Assembly: GCA_029856365.1 (NCBI GenBank)
Contig: JAHQWW010000007.1
Location: forward strand, 1-64,000
Direction of reading: 5' to 3'
DNA: 64,000 nt
Origin: Candidatus Hodarchaeota archaeon
GTDB lineage: Archaea; Asgardarchaeota; Heimdallarchaeia; Hodarchaeales; Hodarchaeaceae
The notes under the pieces are model-generated. The model had not been told where the DNA came from, did no database searches, and was given only the letters and a program-made list of their open reading frames with translations. Below, piece by piece: positions 37,974 to 46,186 of this stretch. Position 1 is the stretch's first letter. Each line of letters begins with the position of its first letter. The position numbers and the translations under genes are program-made.

Positions 37974-38522
37974 ATGCCTACAAAATTGTTTGGTCGAGAG
38001 ATAGAAAATCAAATAGCATTTGTTGGCCTTGCAAATGCGGGGAAAACTACCTTAGTTAAAAGACTTAAGGGAGACGATAATCTAGAAACCGTACCAACAA
38101 TGGGGATGAATATTGAGACTTTAAAAATTGGTGACATTGAAGTAATGGCTGCAGATCTAGGAGGACAGGCAACATATCCGACGAGCTTATGGAAACCATT
38201 TGTTTCAGATGCATCAGGTATTGTGTTTGTATTTGATTCTGCAGACAGATCTAAAGTCGAGAATGCGGGAAAGTGGTTGAAGAACGTCATTCAATGGGCG
38301 CCAGAAGATTCTGCATTTCTTTTCTTGGCAAATAAACAAGATTTAACAGAAGCAATGACTCTTGAAAGAATTATTTATACATTAGAACTTGAAAAAGAGA
38401 TGGCTGCAAGACCTAGAACGTTTGCTGTTTATCCTTGTTCTGCATTAACAGGTGATGGGGTCGAGGAACCGTGGCAGTGGATGAGCGACAGGTTTCGTCA
38501 TAGAATGTCACAAAAAAAATAG
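37974..38522 (+). CDS. Arf/Sar-family small GTPase
   Basis: GLANAGKTT, VPTMGMN, DLGGQ, ANKQD, CSALTG. Confidence 0.92.
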   Translation: MPTKLFGREIENQIAFVGLANAGKTTLVKRLKGDDNLETVPTMGMNIETLKIGDIEVMAADLGGQATYPTSLWKPFVSDASGIVFVFDSADRSKVENAGKWLKNVIQWAPEDSAFLFLANKQDLTEAMTLERIIYTLELEKEMAARPRTFAVYPCSALTGDGVEEPWQWMSDRFRHRMSQKK

Positions 38523-39095
38523 GTGCCCCATATGAGTTTCCTTTCAAAGCTTCGCGCAAAATTTGCCAAAGAAAAATTAACGGTAAAGATCGCGTGGCTG
38601 GGTCTTGACCAGGCAGGGAAAACTACATTAGTCAAAAGAATAACATCTGGAGAGTTTAACAGTAGTACTTTCCGAACATTAGGGATGAATGTTGATGAAT
38701 TTAGTTCGGGAAATGTTCGATTTATTTCTTGGGATATTGGGGGGCAAGAAGCCTTTCGTGAATCTCTTTGGGAAAGCTATATGGCAGGTAGCATGGGAAT
38801 CGTATATGTGGTGGATTCAGCCGATAGAGCTCGACTCTCAGAAGCTAAGATGGAATTATGGAAATATGTCCTTGATAATGATAAAGTTGAAAACATACCA
38901 ATTTTAGTCCTTGCTAATAAACAGGATCTTGAAAATGCCGCTTCAGCTGGAGAGGTTGCTCGAGGGCTCAATCTTCATAAAGTTACGACACATTCATATG
39001 CTATCGTTCCCACGTCTGCCAAAACTGGTTTTAACGTTGAGGAAGGACTTGAATGGCTTCGCCAAAGGGTGACTGAAAAAATCGATCTCTTATAG
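38523..39095 (+). CDS. Arf/Sar-family small GTPase with N-terminal amphipathic helix
   Basis: MSFLSKLRAKFAK, GLDQAGKTT, WDIGGQ, ANKQD, SAKTG; likely start ATG 38532. Confidence 0.93.
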   Translation: MPHMSFLSKLRAKFAKEKLTVKIAWLGLDQAGKTTLVKRITSGEFNSSTFRTLGMNVDEFSSGNVRFISWDIGGQEAFRESLWESYMAGSMGIVYVVDSADRARLSEAKMELWKYVLDNDKVENIPILVLANKQDLENAASAGEVARGLNLHKVTTHSYAIVPTSAKTGFNVEEGLEWLRQRVTEKIDLL

Positions 39096-39145: not shown

Positions 39146-39955
39146 CTAACGTTTTTTCTTCATGACTACCTTTTCAGAAACCTCATTAATCCGGTCACAA
39201 AGTGCAAGAAACAGTGCATGTAACCTTTCCAGATTCAAATCTTTGTTAATTCGTGCATAAATACGAATGGATGGATCATCAGCAGAATTGACAGAAATTC
39301 TAACAACTACTTTTCTAACATTATGAATCAGTTTCAAAAGGTTTTTATCACCGAGAAAGTATGTTCCTGTCCGTTGGGTGGTCGCTTTAACCAAAAAAAA
39401 ATCATCAAATCTTTTTACTCCGAGCTCGATGTCTTCAAGTGTAAACAGGAAATCTTGATGTTTTTTTATTTGACCTTCTTCATGTTTAGGTATGATCTGA
39501 ATCTTGGTAGGAATTTGAGAACGGATTTCTCCCTTTTTTGAGTTTGCCTCTAGTGCTATATAATCATTTACTCCTGCAAACCATGAGATGATGACTGATA
39601 ACATGAGATGCCTTTCTTCTAGGGCAAATACCACACGGAAGTCTTGAAAGGGTATATCATGTGATCTCTTGTACTTGGGAAGTAACAAACCCCCGTTTGA
39701 ACTCATTTCATCCATAACAAGATCATCGAATTCGTTTGTAAAGACTTCCAACAATGCTTCTCGTGATAATCGCATAATTTTGCGATTTTTTCGTCTTCCA
39801 GCCCATAAAAGGTAGAATGTAAAGAATAGAACCGTCCCTGGGCCTAAGAATATTAAAACATAGTCTATCATCCCATATCCTTCTTGGAGGAAAAAACGAG
39901 GAAAATTTTCTAGAGGAAACTCAAAAAATCCCAAATTCAACATCATTGAACTCAT
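39146..39955 (-). CDS. CCDC47/DUF1682-like single-pass membrane protein
   Basis: TM helix followed by GRRKNRKI...L...F and L..RH.MLS.I, paralleling CCDC47 GKNKN..LA and L..RQDLL; by-eye match only. Confidence 0.55.
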   Translation of the reverse strand: MSSMMLNLGFFEFPLENFPRFFLQEGYGMIDYVLIFLGPGTVLFFTFYLLWAGRRKNRKIMRLSREALLEVFTNEFDDLVMDEMSSNGGLLLPKYKRSHDIPFQDFRVVFALEERHLMLSVIISWFAGVNDYIALEANSKKGEIRSQIPTKIQIIPKHEEGQIKKHQDFLFTLEDIELGVKRFDDFFLVKATTQRTGTYFLGDKNLLKLIHNVRKVVVRISVNSADDPSIRIYARINKDLNLERLHALFLALCDRINEVSEKVVMKKKR

Positions 39956-40084: not shown

Positions 40085-40684
40085 TTAATGCTGTATAAAG
40101 CTAGCAATTTCCTTGTATCTGAAGGAATCTTTCCCATTTTCCCCTATAACTTGGTAAAATTGAAAAGCAGCACGACCAGAAATATCAATCTTGGTAGGTT
40201 CAATAACAAGTGCAATAGAAAGAGCATTGTGGAGCTGAAAAGAATAAATATGAGTTTTTATATCTGTTTGAGATAAAAATAGGCCATATCCAGGATGAGA
40301 ATGCCACCAACCAAGGCAATAATAGTCATCTTCCAATATATCTTCAAAAACCCTAAAATCTTCTTCAGAAAAAGAAACAGATACTTCATCACCTTCAGAA
40401 ACAAAAATGATTTTTAATATTTCCAATTCTTTGGGACGTAGTTCTTTCCCACCTAACAGACCAATAGCTTCCCTAGGCATAGATTTTACTGAATATTCAG
40501 TTATTTCATCAAGTAATTTTCCTAAGATTGATACTGACTTAACTTGGGGAGATGAAGGAATTTTTAACTTTTCGATTTCCGCTTGTTTACCAAAAAAGCC
40601 CTCTTGTATTTTATTAGTAGTCTTCCCTTCCGTTATTTTATAATTTTCTGCCCTCAATCCTTTTTGTTTATTATTGTCAGACAT
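40085..40684 (-). CDS. JAB1/MPN+ (JAMM) metalloisopeptidase
   Basis: EAIGLLGG and intact GWWHSHPGYGLFLSQTD (E...HxH...S..D). Confidence 0.93.
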   Translation of the reverse strand: MSDNNKQKGLRAENYKITEGKTTNKIQEGFFGKQAEIEKLKIPSSPQVKSVSILGKLLDEITEYSVKSMPREAIGLLGGKELRPKELEILKIIFVSEGDEVSVSFSEEDFRVFEDILEDDYYCLGWWHSHPGYGLFLSQTDIKTHIYSFQLHNALSIALVIEPTKIDISGRAAFQFYQVIGENGKDSFRYKEIASFIQH

Positions 40685-40716: not shown

Positions 40717-41259
40717 TTACTTTGCATGCTTCTTGGTCCAATCTTCAGCTGTTTCCCAGAATTTATCAAAATTTGTTTTCATCATCTCTCCAGCTTCAGG
40801 ATTAAAGGGATCATTTGGATCAACAAGATATTCTGGAAAATCTACATCCCCTGTTGCCTGATAAACATCTAACATCATTTCAACATGTTCAAAGACACTG
40901 GGCAAAGTTATCGTTTCCTTCCAACCACCAGGTTTCCCTAAGTTATTCCAATTCACAAGACTTAAGCATACATTGGAGCCCCAGTTCCATTGAGTTTTAC
41001 CAGTTGCAATATTAGGGTGATATATAGGAGTCAGAAAGTTGATAATTGGAGGTTTAAAGGGATATTCAGAAGGTAAGTCAAGAGTGATCTCCCATTTACC
41101 TCCCTCATAAGGAGTATTTTTCTTTCCTTTAATAGTCGCTTTGTAATGATGAAGGTCATTATTGACTATAGCCCATTTAATGGGACTTTTTTTCGGTGGA
41201 TAAGTTTTCAACATCCGTTTGAACTCTTCTCGTAGCCGTCTAGAGTGTAAATCCTGCAC
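40717..41259 (-). CDS. Ubiquitin-conjugating enzyme E2
   Basis: RRLREEF, TPYEGG, YPFKPP, YHPNI...VCLSL, DPFNPEA. Confidence 0.95.
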   Translation of the reverse strand: MQDLHSRRLREEFKRMLKTYPPKKSPIKWAIVNNDLHHYKATIKGKKNTPYEGGKWEITLDLPSEYPFKPPIINFLTPIYHPNIATGKTQWNWGSNVCLSLVNWNNLGKPGGWKETITLPSVFEHVEMMLDVYQATGDVDFPEYLVDPNDPFNPEAGEMMKTNFDKFWETAEDWTKKHAK

Positions 41260-41480: not shown

Positions 41481-42275
41481 ATGGAGGATACACAAACTGA
41501 TATTTCTCAATGTAGCGGTTGTGGGGCGCCCCTTCCAATAAGACCAACATATCAACACCCTATAAAGTGTGAATACTGTGACCTGACAAATTATCTGAAA
41601 CGGGCCGCTATCACACCAGCAGAAGCACAAATGATGGATGCAGAAGAAGAAGCTGAAAATTATTATCTTATTTACCAAGAATCACAGAAAATTCTTGAAA
41701 ATTTTCCTGGGGAATTTGTTGGTGATGAAGTAAGTAAGATAAGGATAAAGATGCAAGTAAAAGAATACGCTTTTCCTCTCTTTCTTGTGTTGGATGATTT
41801 ACCTGACCGACCTTACATTGATGGCCCTGCTAAACTTAGAGAAATATTAGATTGTGAAATCAATGATTTAAAAGGAATGAAAAACTGGACTCCCGGTTCA
41901 GGTTCAGTACTGAGCGTGTTAGAAGAAATTTATCAGAAAGCTGAAGAAGGACTTCCCCGAGTCATGGAAGAACCCGTTATAGCGTCTTCTGAAGTTTCTT
42001 CTATAATTCAAGAAGAACGTGATCCTCTTATACGTCAAATCCTCGCGAATTATGATGCTTCAGCAGATAAAAAAGAGATTAATGTAAGATTTTATGCCCA
42101 GAATGGTGAAGTCATAAATTTTGTCATTAGGAGAAAAAAGAATTTACCTATAGGTCTTGAAAGTGATATTTTGACTAAATATCCTCTTATCCGAGGGCCT
42201 TTAGAGGATTATGCCAAAGGACGGATTGATATTCTTTCTACACTCTCAGAAATTGAACGTATGTTTTACACTTAA
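41481..42275 (+). CDS. Zinc-ribbon plus putative inactive E2-like (UEV/RWD) protein
   Basis: CSGCGAPL...CEYC; LPDRPYI...LKGMKNWTPG...VLSVLEEI resembles a UBC fold lacking HPN and the catalytic Cys. Confidence 0.5.
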   Translation: MEDTQTDISQCSGCGAPLPIRPTYQHPIKCEYCDLTNYLKRAAITPAEAQMMDAEEEAENYYLIYQESQKILENFPGEFVGDEVSKIRIKMQVKEYAFPLFLVLDDLPDRPYIDGPAKLREILDCEINDLKGMKNWTPGSGSVLSVLEEIYQKAEEGLPRVMEEPVIASSEVSSIIQEERDPLIRQILANYDASADKKEINVRFYAQNGEVINFVIRRKKNLPIGLESDILTKYPLIRGPLEDYAKGRIDILSTLSEIERMFYT

Positions 42276-42297: not shown

Positions 42298-42618
42298 ATG
42301 AGTAAAAAGGATGTAATTTGGGATTCTACTTCTACAGGAAAAACCCCTGACAGTGGTATTGAAAAAATGATTAAAATTCGCTTTAAGGATCCACAACTTC
42401 CTCCAGATCAAAATATTCGTGAAAAATACATCAACATTAACGGAACTGTATTTCAAGCAATCACAGCGGCTCGTGATGCATTTAATATTCCAGAAGTTGT
42501 ACCGATCGCTTTATTATTCAAGGGAAGAAGAATGAATCCTTCAAATAATCTTTCTTCCTATGGAATCGAACAAAATGCAATTCTCATGATAGTTCCAGAC
42601 CAGATTAAGGGGGGATAA
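42298..42618 (+). CDS. Ubiquitin-like modifier ending in di-glycine (UFM1/SUMO-like features)
   Basis: ATG 42298 after AAGGTGA SD; LLFKGRRM...LSSYGI...LMIVPDQIKGG*; directly upstream of the E1. Confidence 0.9.
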   Translation: MSKKDVIWDSTSTGKTPDSGIEKMIKIRFKDPQLPPDQNIREKYININGTVFQAITAARDAFNIPEVVPIALLFKGRRMNPSNNLSSYGIEQNAILMIVPDQIKGG

Positions 42619-42657: not shown

Positions 42658-43887
42658 ATGACACAGGATCTTCCTTCTTCCAAATATGACCGACAAGAAC
42701 GTCTATCTCTCTGGGATCAACATATCGTTGAAGATAGTGTAATTTTAATAGCAGGAGTAGGAGGGACAGGTAGCGAGGTAGCTAAGAACTTAGCTTTATT
42801 GGGTATTGGTGGTTTGATCCTTGTTGATGTTGACACCATAGAATTTTCTAACTTAAATCGTCAAATGTTGTTTAAAGAGGAGGATGTTGGGAAGAAAAAG
42901 GTAGAAATTGCAACAAAAAGGATTCGAGAGAGATTTAATCCCGATATAAAGATTGAAAGCTATTCAAACCTCCTCCAAAACTTACCACAAAGGATTTTTC
43001 ACAAAGTTGACATCATCGCAGGCTGTGTAGATAATTTTTTGGCGCGACAATATCTTAATGCTATGGCGGTTGAACTGAAAATACCTTTTATTGATTCAGC
43101 TACCGATGGTTATTTCGGACAAATCCAGTACATAAAGCCAAAAGATACTGCTTGTTTAGCTTGTGAAACACCCCAACCGCCTAATGAAACTCGAGTTTTA
43201 ACAGCTCCTTGTACCTTAGTGGGAGTTCCTCGTGTGAGAGAACATTGTGCTTGGAAAGCGCTTTATGAATTTAGTACTATCCATGAGCGTGAACCTATAG
43301 ATACCTCGGCTGAAGATATTGCTGAACTTACAAAATTAGCAAATAATTTTGCCTACGAGTACAATTTTGGGCAATTTGATGAAAAACAACTCTTACAATT
43401 AATACTTTTCCACGTACCCAGTCTGATCACTGTTAATGCGGTAGTCAGTGGTCTACAATCTCAAGAAATCATAAAGTCTCTCTTTTTAGAAAAAAAAGAT
43501 ATTATGAAAGAAAGGGAACGCAAAATCCTTGAAAATTTGCTAAAAGCTCATAGATTCCGCATCCCTTCATTTATCATATATTCTGCGTTAACAGGGACTA
43601 TTAATACATTCGATTTAGTTCCTGATCCAAGTTGTCTTGTTTGTGGTCAATCTAATACCGTTGTAGATTCCATCCAAATCGTAACAGTAGATCGTAAGTC
43701 AAGATTTGGATCTCTTCTTGATACGATTCGAGAAGAACATAATAAAGACTATGTTGGGTTTCGAGGAAATCTCATCATACCTGATGATGGTATCATCCAA
43801 AAATTTCTTTCTGATGGTGATCGGATAACTCTTAGTTCTTTAGCTGATGATGAAGAAATACGTTTGCAAATAAAATTTCTAAATTAA
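42658..43887 (+). CDS. Ubiquitin-activating enzyme E1 (UBA3/UBA2-like)
   Basis: YDRQ, GVGGTG, DVDTIEFSNLNRQ, CVDNFLAR, CLAC, catalytic PCTLVGVPRVREHC, CLVC, small C-terminal domain. Confidence 0.93.
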   Translation: MTQDLPSSKYDRQERLSLWDQHIVEDSVILIAGVGGTGSEVAKNLALLGIGGLILVDVDTIEFSNLNRQMLFKEEDVGKKKVEIATKRIRERFNPDIKIESYSNLLQNLPQRIFHKVDIIAGCVDNFLARQYLNAMAVELKIPFIDSATDGYFGQIQYIKPKDTACLACETPQPPNETRVLTAPCTLVGVPRVREHCAWKALYEFSTIHEREPIDTSAEDIAELTKLANNFAYEYNFGQFDEKQLLQLILFHVPSLITVNAVVSGLQSQEIIKSLFLEKKDIMKERERKILENLLKAHRFRIPSFIIYSALTGTINTFDLVPDPSCLVCGQSNTVVDSIQIVTVDRKSRFGSLLDTIREEHNKDYVGFRGNLIIPDDGIIQKFLSDGDRITLSSLADDEEIRLQIKFLN

Positions 43888-43995: not shown

Positions 43996-44337
43996 TTACT
44001 TTTTATAAAATAATCGTATCTTGTCCCTTCTTTTGGGGAGAATTGGATTGATTTTCGGTTTCAGGTAAGGTTCTTTAAAACCAAGATCAGGGGCTTTTTC
44101 ATCAGTTAATCGGTCATAAATCTTTCCAATTACTTGATCTCGTGATTTTTGAGTGATTTGCGGCTTTTTATAGAATTTTCGAGCAACTCTAGGGCGGTGA
44201 TGGGGAATCTCCACGCGTTTCCCACACTTAGGACAATACCAACTCCCAGAGACAGGGAGATCTCGAGGAATATGACCACAATTTGCACATTTGAATTCAT
44301 TCTGAGCCATTATATTTTTTCCTCTGGCTTTTCCCAC
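43996..44337 (-). CDS. Small basic zinc-ribbon protein
   Basis: FKCANCG...WYCPKCG followed by a K/R/P-rich tail. Confidence 0.65.
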   Translation of the reverse strand: MGKARGKNIMAQNEFKCANCGHIPRDLPVSGSWYCPKCGKRVEIPHHRPRVARKFYKKPQITQKSRDQVIGKIYDRLTDEKAPDLGFKEPYLKPKINPILPKRRDKIRLFYKK

Positions 44338-44434: not shown

Positions 44435-46186
44435 ATGTTTGGGAGAAAAAGACAAAAATGGTTCACAGAAGCTCAAATGGCACATACTCTGCTTAAATTC
44501 CGTGAAATGGCACCAAGAGAAAACCCAAGCGTTATTGCTGCATTTTTGCGTGAAAAAATTGGTTCAAACGAGTTAAATGGCTTTGTTAGTTTTGATGACG
44601 AAAAATTCATCCCTAAAAAGTTCCTTCACCAATGGATATCTCGTGAATTGGCAACAAAAGGTTTTATAGACATATGTGATGTTATTGACACTACAAACTT
44701 ACCAGGTGAGCTACTAGAACACCAAATCAAATTGGCAGCTCAAAATATCGAGGGGTTCTTTGATATCATTCATCGAAAATTCTTCACCCTACAAGGAGCT
44801 AAAGCAGAAATCAAACAGAGAGTAAGTACAAATACCACAATGGATCTGAAATATCTCTTGAACCAACTCTATTGGACTGAAGAATACTTAGAAGGCGTTT
44901 TGGAGCTTATTGCCCAAGAAAATCAATTCATTGGTTACATTGATCCAATAAAAAAACGAATATATAATTTTACTCTTTTAAATTTCTCCTCTCCCTCAGA
45001 CATGCAAAAAAATATCAAATATCTCATTCGTTTTATAAATACAAGTTTTCAATTGGAATCTGAAGTCTCAGTTAACCATATTAGTAAATTAACACAACTA
45101 TCAGAAGAAGAATGTCTAGAATTTCTGGAAAGAATTCGAAACCAAATCAGCTTCATCTTTTCCGCTAACTACCATTATCTATATTCCACTATGGACATTA
45201 TGAACCAAATCTTGAAAGACATTTTCGTTTATCGAAATATTCCTATTGATTTCTGGATTCGACGTCTCGATGTAGACAGACCTGATTTTTTCAATATGCT
45301 AAATATTTTAAATCAGAGTTTAAAGGGAACTTTGTCTGTAGAAGATTTTAGTGCTTCTTCTTTAAGCGAATGGTTCGAAAATGGAATTGCTGTTGAGGAT
45401 TTAGCATCATCATTAAGTCTAGACCCATTAAAACTCTTAGATCGAATTCTCAAGTTAGCAAAGCTCCTTGGATTACGACTTATAGCAGGAGAAACCTCTG
45501 ATCCCTTTTTAGTTAAAGGTGTAAGATATTTTGAAATTTTTTGCCAAATAGACACGTCTTCTTATACGGATCCTGGTCTTTATTTCGAGTGTCAAAACTG
45601 TCGACGAATTATGTGCTCAAATTGCCGTTCTACAGGAAGTAAACATGAATGTCCGTTTTGTGGAAACATTTCTGCTTTTATTATCGATCTTCCTAGATAT
45701 TGTCCCCATTGTAGGGTTAACTACACTCACTCTTACAATTTAGTGAGCACAGAGGAATGCTATTTCTGCAAAAAGGGTCCTTTAAAAATTGGATGGACTG
45801 AATACGAACCAATCCCACTTAAATCATCTGAATTAGATCCAACTCTCTTAGAATTTCTTGAACAGTCATCTAAAGCTGAAATTCCACTCAAACAAATAAT
45901 AAATTTAATTAACCGCTCTGATAGCGAAACAATTAAACTATTAGAAAGCTACATCTTACGTGGTACGATTCAAGGGAGGATCAATATTCGAGAAATGACT
46001 TTACAATTAGCTTTACAAGAAGAAAAATTTCTTTGTGGTGTTTGTGAACTTTCTAAAACGGATTCTATCAATTATTTCTGCACATCTTGTGGCTTAAAAT
46101 TATGTACAGATTGCTATAAAGAGATGAGCATAGTAGGAATGATTTTTTGTCCTGAATGTGGGGGAAGTTTGCAGGAGAACAAATAA
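44435..46186 (+). CDS. Winged-helix (PCI/UFL1-like) repeat protein with two RING-like zinc fingers; candidate E3 ligase
   Basis: Repeated WH signatures (IEGFFD, FIGYID, TIQGRI); CQID...CQNC...CSNC...CPFC; CPHC...CYFC; C-terminal CGVC...CTSC...CTDC...CPEC. Confidence 0.7.
   Translation: MFGRKRQKWFTEAQMAHTLLKFREMAPRENPSVIAAFLREKIGSNELNGFVSFDDEKFIPKKFLHQWISRELATKGFIDICDVIDTTNLPGELLEHQIKLAAQNIEGFFDIIHRKFFTLQGAKAEIKQRVSTNTTMDLKYLLNQLYWTEEYLEGVLELIAQENQFIGYIDPIKKRIYNFTLLNFSSPSDMQKNIKYLIRFINTSFQLESEVSVNHISKLTQLSEEECLEFLERIRNQISFIFSANYHYLYSTMDIMNQILKDIFVYRNIPIDFWIRRLDVDRPDFFNMLNILNQSLKGTLSVEDFSASSLSEWFENGIAVEDLASSLSLDPLKLLDRILKLAKLLGLRLIAGETSDPFLVKGVRYFEIFCQIDTSSYTDPGLYFECQNCRRIMCSNCRSTGSKHECPFCGNISAFIIDLPRYCPHCRVNYTHSYNLVSTEECYFCKKGPLKIGWTEYEPIPLKSSELDPTLLEFLEQSSKAEIPLKQIINLINRSDSETIKLLESYILRGTIQGRINIREMTLQLALQEEKFLCGVCELSKTDSINYFCTSCGLKLCTDCYKEMSIVGMIFCPECGGSLQENK

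Follow-up and report, generated by a model that had tools for sequence, protein, structure and literature searches.

UFL1 is, to our knowledge, the only E3 ligase for UFM1, and it has yet to be explained how a protein composed entirely of winged helices acquired the ability to activate an E2. Both UFL1 and DDRGK1 originate in the Asgard archaea (PMC10183829), where homologues of Ufm1 itself have also been found (PMC12962969); IPR018611 serves as a marker for an Asgard 'E3' (PMC9192718), and there are Asgard multidomain proteins in which E3_UFM1_ligase is linked to elements of Vps28 and adaptin (bioRxiv 10.1101/2020.10.19.343400). The ubiquitin operons of archaea, for their part, use a small RING E3 (PMC5654768). 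Our gene lies within positions 1 to 64,000 of the forward strand of contig JAHQWW010000007.1 (the window, in what follows) from the Candidatus Hodarchaeota archaeon assembly GCA_029856365.1. The archaeon belongs to the Hodarchaeales, an order often placed close to eukaryotes, and the gene product of 583 residues (P0001) carries an array of winged helices homologous to that of UFL1, together with two RING-like fingers, beside genes for the enzymes of ubiquitin-type conjugation. We think it reasonably probable that this protein is a RING-type E3 built on a UFL1-homologous scaffold, and that it serves the ubiquitin-type cluster rather than the enzymes of the UFM1 pathway.

The winged-helix array and its relationship to UFL1

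The AlphaFold2 (AF2) model of the whole protein, computed from an alignment of 46 sequences, has a predicted local distance difference test score (pLDDT) of 87.8 and a predicted template modelling score (pTM) of 0.76. Six winged helices, each of three helices and two strands, occupy residues 1–364, and are followed by a β-rich Cys cluster (366–454), a linker, a seventh winged helix (467–527) and a further Cys cluster (532–579); the C-terminal 220 residues, therefore, consist of the fingers and a single winged helix. Within the chain, two paralogous modules can be discerned, each comprising a winged helix and a probable cross-brace finger.

The array is homologous to that of UFL1 by sequence profile, by fold and by hhalign comparison. 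When the family profile is run against the sequences of the Protein Data Bank (PDB), the top match is a DDRGK1–UFL1 chimera (8b9x; whole-sequence E = 1.6e-6), followed by UFL1 in 8c0d, 8qfc and 8ohd (about 1e-5, and at most 1.2e-5). With HMMER, profile positions 64–115 fall on residues 138–189 of human UFL1, which reproduces, L-P-G segment included, an alignment that the initial annotation had made by eye. Moreover, the Pfam family PF09743 (E3_UFM1_ligase) matches 25 of the 46 members at E-values up to 0.1 (best 3e-6), and one of these (P0039) passes the family cut-off, with 27.5 bits against 23.2. The predicted structure likewise bears out the proposed kinship: the five best Foldseek matches are all UFL1 chains (E = 1.9e-9 for 8ohd_A and 4.1e-9 for 8qfc_B, down to 8e-8), the next being the winged-helix array of SelB (7.6e-5; VIA Z about 8), and VIA superposes residues 1–306 of the model on residues 58–365 of UFL1 with a Z of 10.0 (284 aligned residues; root mean square deviation (rmsd) 12.2), the UFL1 alignments ending at around residue 306. 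In the ESM Atlas, a search by shape found as nearest neighbours a cluster of Asgard DDRGK/UFL1/PCI proteins and clusters of eukaryotic UFL1; a search by features of the same resource returned no usable match. Additionally, hhalign pairs the family with the Lokiarchaeial DDRGK+UFL1 family over about 160 residues (probability 93.6%, E = 2.1e-7).

Residues 1–60 form a complete winged helix in the AF2 model (helices 2–15, 22–25 and 31–43; strands 49–51 and 57–60), such that no complement from DDRGK1 is needed, and the helical C-terminal region of UFL1 is absent. We conclude that the protein is not a UFL1 orthologue.

The last winged helix had initially been likened to DDRGK1. Although HMMER reproduces this alignment, it does so with a domain E-value of only 7.8, which is not above chance. 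In Pfam, 16 of 32 members match PCI at this domain, and one matches DDRGK (PF09756; E = 0.15); in the PDB, its profile finds DDRGK1 at 0.065, tied with CSN2 (0.046) and SarA (0.024). Furthermore, its counterpart by hhalign in the Lokiarchaeial fusion protein is the final UFL1/PCI winged helix and not the DDRGK segment, and VIA matches it to the PCI winged helices of PCID2 and the Rpn proteins with Z of 9.0–9.7 and an rmsd of about 2 Å. It is, in short, a generic PCI-type domain, for which an alignment with DDRGK1 does exist but lacks specificity. Neither the N-terminal membrane anchor nor the long helix of DDRGK1 is found in the open reading frame (ORF); no transmembrane segment is seen in it, and the protein is predicted to be soluble.

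The zinc fingers

The initial annotation had picked out two Cys arrays with RING-like spacing, at 45542–45663 and 46034–46160, one of which had an Asp among its ligands. Both arrays stand: the first runs from C370 to C409 (finger 1: C370-x2-D373-x12-C386-x2-C389-x4-C394-x2-C397-x8-C406-x2-C409), and the second from C534 to C575 (finger 2: C534-x2-C537-x11-C549-x2-C552-x4-C557-x2-C560-x11-C572-x2-C575). A third invariant site had, however, been missed, namely, a ribbon with the ligands C423-x2-C426-x15-C442-x2-C445, for which there are weak Pfam matches to Zn_ribbon_NOB1 and the SprT ribbon. The 20 ligands would fill five predicted zinc sites, with no conserved Cys to spare; across the 46 orthologues, the eight Cys of finger 2, and the 11 Cys and D373 of the first cluster, are invariant. 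A match to the Rcat domain of ARIH2 (E = 8.6e-4) had raised the idea of an RBR-like (RING-between-RING) enzyme, which was rejected because the five zinc sites use all of the conserved Cys and none is left over for catalysis.

Finger 1 is colinear with finger 2 (z = 4.1 versus shuffles), and in this alignment D373 faces C537. In remote relatives, the position of D373 is occupied by Cys, restoring C-x2-C, and the assignment of the Asp as a ligand therefore holds; some relatives of finger 2 have Asp or His at the same place. When finger 1 and the ribbon are modelled alone (AF2 pLDDT 88.9), the best Foldseek matches of finger 1 are almost all RINGs (Bre1, RING1B, TRIM32, c-Cbl, RNF4, TRIM21 and Rad18), with probabilities of 0.9 or more and E-values of 0.04–0.4, as is usual for a domain of 55 residues; a wide VIA search returns RING, U-box and ZZ folds with Z of 3 to 4.6. 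For finger 2, a comparison by profile only, with remote relatives included, gives the RINGs of CesA (2e-5), TRIM32 (6.5e-5), BRE1 (7e-4) and RING1B (2e-3), as well as MAT1, TRIM56 and RNF125, and ZZ domains at ~2e-3. The positions of finger 2 that correspond to E2 contacts are hydrophobic: V/I536 (C1+2) in 44, M564 (C6+4) in 41 and P573 (C7+1) in 41 of the 46 sequences; their counterparts in finger 1 are I/V372 and P407. Taken together, these results assign the fingers to the binuclear treble clefs of the RING/ZZ class and favour RING over ZZ, in keeping with the RING-like character first proposed for both arrays.

A predicted complex between residues 463–583 (the seventh winged helix plus the RING) and the E2 encoded in the same cluster has an ipSAE of 0.56, as against 0.00 for the best of three controls; the runs have at least 97% of their contacts in common, and the pLDDT of the partner is at least 83. 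Of 80 solved complexes, 58 attain the mark set for ipSAE, as do 2 of 110 mismatched pairs, and the passes at 0.60 or under comprise 7 of the 80 solved complexes and both of the mismatches. Because RING–E2 complexes have already been solved, the pass may reflect likeness only, and the model lends no more than weak support to E2 docking.

Genomic setting, distribution and relatives

In window order, the block reads: two Arf-like GTPases, a 269-residue protein, a JAMM isopeptidase, a UBC-type E2, a 264-residue zinc-ribbon protein, a ubiquitin-like modifier (Ubl), an E1, a 113-residue zinc-ribbon protein and the gene in question, beyond which SPFH and Vps22/EAP30-like genes follow convergently (Table 1). 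An identical order is kept around an orthologue that is only 43% identical; moreover, JAB, UQ_con and ThiF genes, arranged differently, also adjoin a remote relative of 596 residues, and this points to a functional link. The conserved cluster contains no other RING or srfp gene.

The partner enzymes are of the ubiquitin type. The best PDB matches of the E2 are Ubc4/UbcH5 (E = 2e-21), and its HPN motif, catalytic Cys and PFKPP loop are present; the E1 matches UBA1 at 4.5e-39, UBA2/UBA3 at about 1e-30 and UBA5 at about 1e-19; and the profile of the Ubl matches ubiquitin only, and not UFM1. In the source genome, which is 83.6% complete, nothing exceeds the cut-off for PF09743, PF09756, PF08694 (UFC1) or PF03671 (Ufm1), nor was a DDRGK+UFL1 protein of the Lokiarchaeial type found there, although at this completeness absence is not proven for any of them.

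Table 1. Positions in the window of the gene, the domains it encodes and the neighbouring genes
Feature	Position	Strand	Basis or remarks
Gene, single frame of 583 residues (P0001)	44435..46186	+	ORF list, homologues, presence across genus
Six tandem PCI-type winged helices, UFL1-homologous array	44435..45526	+	Residues 1-60, 61-118, 119-180, 187-251, 252-308, 309-364; AF2 pLDDT 90-97
RING-like finger 1	45530..45667	+	Invariant ligands, separate AF2 model, RING fold matches
Four-Cys zinc ribbon/knuckle pair	45695..45778	+	Ligands invariant, remote relatives included
Seventh winged helix, PCI-type, residues 467-527	45833..46015	+	AF2, VIA, Pfam PCI
Terminal C4C4 RING finger 2	46028..46171	+	Eight invariant Cys, RING profile matches
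Two adjacent Arf-family small GTPase genes	37974-39095	+	Flank conjugation cluster; kept in orthologous locus
Conserved 269-residue cluster gene	39146-39955	-	No Pfam match
JAMM/MPN isopeptidase	40085..40684	-	Pfam JAB 1.4e-9; synteny conserved
Canonical UBC-type E2 with HPN, catalytic Cys and several insertions	40717..41259	-	Pfam UQ_con 2.9e-24
Conserved 264-residue gene, N-terminal zinc ribbon	41481-42275	+	No Pfam match
Ubl, 106 residues, GG-stop end	42298..42618	+	Pfam Rad60-SLD and ubiquitin
E1 activating enzyme	42658..43887	+	ThiF 4.1e-55 and E1_4HB
113-residue two-knuckle zinc-ribbon protein, divergent from the gene	43996..44337	-	Conserved neighbour

Several features of the neighbours deserve mention in their own right. 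With 180 residues, the E2 is longer than UbcH5 (about 147); it has insertions on both sides of the catalytic Cys, as well as in the loop that carries S-P-A in UbcH5, and these could alter RING or backside contacts. The Ubl remains 81–99% identical across loci in which the E3 candidate falls to 43%; every copy ends in GG-stop, and C-terminal processing is therefore not needed. The 113-residue zinc-ribbon protein may be a partner of the E3 candidate: a gene of 110 residues takes its position in the 43%-identity locus (L010), and one of 104 residues directly adjoins the gene for the remote relative P0102.

Searching some 5.8 billion proteins by word index yielded 64 homologues, of which the full-length ones nearly all have 582–591 residues and the named ones are labelled Hodarchaeales, Hodarchaeota or Heimdallarchaeota. 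Two orthologues are called 'DC1 domain-containing protein' by NCBI, a name based on a weak likeness to C1_2 that we have not adopted, and the others are hypothetical. When 1.84 billion cluster representatives were searched exhaustively with HMMER, no more than 14 proteins had E-values up to 1e-30; behind them came a long tail having just the C-terminal module of winged helix and finger, or the internal one. A sample of 300 genomes from the whole phylum included 20 of the same genus, all of which have a full-length orthologue, in a fixed gene order, and a divergent relative of 588 residues occurs in one of two genomes from another family of the order; no orthologue was found in the remaining families of the class, and in a different family the match, seen in 13 of 68 genomes, is limited to the N-terminal winged-helix region. 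Among the genomes sampled, the full-length family is thus limited to one order. The 46 aligned orthologues are 42–85% identical, and conservation peaks in the first Cys cluster, where residues 366–454 are almost invariant.

The fingers are not confined to this protein: most genomes of the genus have several matches to the finger family, which has therefore expanded in the lineage. The source genome encodes a paralogue of 916 residues (L001:205-2955 (-), G000:C133) with a long polytopic membrane region, UFL1-like repeats (PF09743, E = 0.007) and the same two types of finger, and counterparts of about 920 residues exist in two other genomes of the genus; this is a membrane-anchored version of the same architecture, recalling the anchoring of UFL1 to the endoplasmic reticulum (ER) by DDRGK1. 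Two more proteins of the source genome, L007:16-1674 (+) (G000:C34) and one on L006 (G000:C63), have fingers of this family at their C-termini (E = 1e-6 to 1e-8); the 552-residue one of the two has, in addition, a zf-RING_4 match and a double zinc ribbon. Of three stand-alone members (85–130 residues), P0162 has a ubiquitin/E1/E2 operon about 3 kb away, and the other two have none nearby.

Proposed function and comparison with known systems

As a RING-type E3, the protein would operate through its terminal C4C4 RING, possibly together with finger 1, by docking a charged UBC-type E2 at the hydrophobic groove of V536, M564 and P573. The docked RING would then promote direct transfer of the GG-ended modifier by a scaffold-type mechanism involving no thioester Cys, and the winged-helix array could act as a substrate- or platform-binding arm, in the manner of the UFL1 array on the ribosome (as described in PDB titles). 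A number of observations weigh against this interpretation. The query alone has nothing above any Pfam cut-off (there are sub-threshold hits to C1_2, PCI and B-box only), and no match to PF09743 at E-values up to 1. Taken singly, the winged helices match the PCI domains of the proteasome lid and CSN equally well (VIA Z of 9 to 10.5), as would be expected because the domains of UFL1 are themselves PCI-like (PMC9627666), and the register of the array relative to UFL1 is ambiguous, being one repeat apart in HMMER and VIA. In absolute terms, the structural matches of the fingers are weak (Foldseek E of at least 0.04; VIA Z up to 4.6), and they include ZZ and U-box folds; the linchpin Arg/Lys after the last Cys is absent (C575-G-G); loop 7 of the E2 has W-K-E-T in place of the S-P-A motif of UbcH5; and the modelled E2 complex must be counted here too on account of its weakness. 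Lastly, domain composition, homology, conservation and synteny are matters of observation, but E2 binding, catalysis and the binding target of the array are what we infer.

Some of these points would also suit a non-catalytic adaptor or receptor, the fingers of which, being ZZ-, B-box- or PHD-like, would bind the modifier, N-termini or peptides, with the array linking modified cargo to the SPFH and Vps22-like neighbours and ligation being left to the E2 alone or to another E3. ZZ domains bind peptides, not E2s, and those of PRT1, dystrobrevin, HERC2, p62, Nbr1 and KCMF1 are among the finger matches, with scores near those of the RINGs; the Y-x-C-x2-C...C-x2-C-Y motif of the fingers, and the x4 gap that separates their second pair of ligands from the third, are typical of ZZ too; and the lack of the linchpin residue and the convergence of the gene with the conserved SPFH/EAP30 pair are also consistent with such a role. 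Nevertheless, the strongest profile matches are to RINGs (2e-5 and 6.5e-5, versus 2e-3 for ZZ), the final two ligands follow the C-P-x-C pattern of RINGs and not H-x2-H, and the three E2-contact positions are both hydrophobic and conserved; the contrast between the E2 complex and its controls speaks weakly in the same direction, as does the fact that the conserved cluster offers no other RING or srfp gene. We regard an adaptor as rather unlikely. A regulator that binds nucleic acid, using its tandem winged helix-turn-helix domains and zinc fingers on DNA or RNA to control the neighbouring genes, seems to us highly improbable: SelB does provide the next-best fold match to the array, and the archaeal transcription factor PF0095 appears weakly in the profile search of the PDB (E = 0.04), but the matches to UFL1 and PCI-type domains are specific and score better, the fingers appear to belong with the cross-brace RINGs and not with DNA-binding types, and the synteny with conjugation enzymes occurs in two different arrangements.

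The initial annotation had gone further and suggested an ancestral, single-chain and RING-dependent UFM1 ligase, combining UFL1 with DDRGK1; this would be the direct precursor of the eukaryotic complex and would act with a UFM1-like modifier. Its UFL1 repeats and two RING-like fingers are upheld, but the DDRGK1 portion and the UFM1-type partners are not. In its favour are the UFL1 homology of the array, the Hodarchaeales lineage and a first winged helix that is complete in one chain, together with the published Asgard origin of UFL1/DDRGK1 (PMC10183829) and the Asgard homologues of Ufm1 (PMC12962969). Conversely, the E2 is Ubc4/UbcH5-like with an HPN motif, the E1 is UBA1/2/3-like and the Ubl resembles ubiquitin only; the searches of the source genome for UFC1, Ufm1 and DDRGK gave nothing over the cut-off; the last winged helix is not specific to DDRGK; and the family is confined to a single order among the genomes sampled. 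Moreover, the Lokiarchaeial proteins of 790 residues, with DDRGK and E3_UFM1_ligase in one chain, are far closer to the eukaryotic pair, which makes the present family less likely to be the direct ancestor. Such a precursor is, in our view, very unlikely, and only slightly better prospects attach to the idea that the family is an intermediate, that is, a UFL1-type scaffold still recruiting a canonical HPN-type E2 via RINGs, which we also consider unlikely. Were the latter true, the eukaryotic UFL1/DDRGK1 ligase would have arisen by loss of the RINGs and a transfer of E2 binding to the N-terminal winged helices, and the membrane-anchored paralogue of 916 residues would be the counterpart of the ER anchoring by DDRGK1.

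For the RING-type E3 that we favour, the parts encoded in the cluster are soluble, small and clustered, and the cascade could therefore be rebuilt in vitro; this would reveal directly if a scaffold like that of UFL1 is able to act by way of a RING, and to what its winged helices bind.

Among the described systems, the more distant parallels are those in which winged helices lie beside a RING within one ligase unit, namely, Nse1, with its tandem winged helices and variant RING, and the cullin/APC2 winged-helix B (WHB) domains with Rbx1/APC11. Nse1 (7dg2_A) is found by Foldseek with an E-value of 9e-3 (probability 0.99, 163 columns) and matches finger 1 with a VIA Z of 3.7, and the WHB domain of APC2 matches the fifth winged helix with a VIA Z of 8.1; given these weak scores and the lack of support at the sequence level, the analogy is architectural only. 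The srfp E3 of the Caldiarchaeum and Asgard ubiquitin operons (PMC5654768) is likewise a RING-type finger, the gene for which accompanies those for E1, E2, ubiquitin and an isopeptidase of the JAMM/Rpn11 kind, and the mechanism proposed is the same; by its published description, however, it is a small stand-alone RING, as opposed to two fingers and seven winged helices.

The Lokiarchaeial proteins of about 790 residues (P0182/P0183 family), an architecture already noted in bioRxiv 10.1101/2020.10.19.343400, share with ours the combination, in a single Asgard chain, of a winged-helix array with Cys-rich fingers. One such fusion (L019:280-2661 (+), G272:C67; family A6) consists of N-terminal Cys/His fingers, DDRGK (113–221), E3_UFM1_ligase (227–454), a GAE-like domain and the C-terminal domain of Vps28; its order, with DDRGK before UFL1, is that of the chimera engineered for crystallization (8b9x); both Pfam matches are well above the cut-off (1.7e-13 for DDRGK and 8.8e-17 for E3_UFM1_ligase). 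It differs in the N-terminal position of the fingers and in its adaptin-ear/Vps28 tail, and an hhalign comparison of our finger profile with the Lokiarchaeial N-terminal finger (probability 24.7%) is not convincing.

The best match by both profile and fold is eukaryotic UFL1 itself (PF09743, IPR018611; 8ohd, 8qfc, 8c0d and 8b9x), which has the same tandem PCI-like winged helices and is, presumably like our protein, a scaffold-type E3 without a catalytic Cys. UFL1 lacks a RING, starts with a helix and a partial winged helix that is completed by DDRGK1/UFBP1, and ends in a helical C-terminal region or domain (CTR/CTD); its partners are UFC1, which has no HPN motif, UBA5 and UFM1 (PMC9627666). 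The Hodarchaeal protein, in contrast, begins with a winged helix that is complete, has two RING-like fingers and a ribbon where UFL1 has the CTR, and is accompanied by partners of the ubiquitin type. In the papers that we searched in full text, we met with no account of RING fingers fused to a UFL1-type array; what seems to be new, therefore, is such an array covalently joined to two RINGs and locked to a complete canonical set of E1, E2, Ubl and JAMM.

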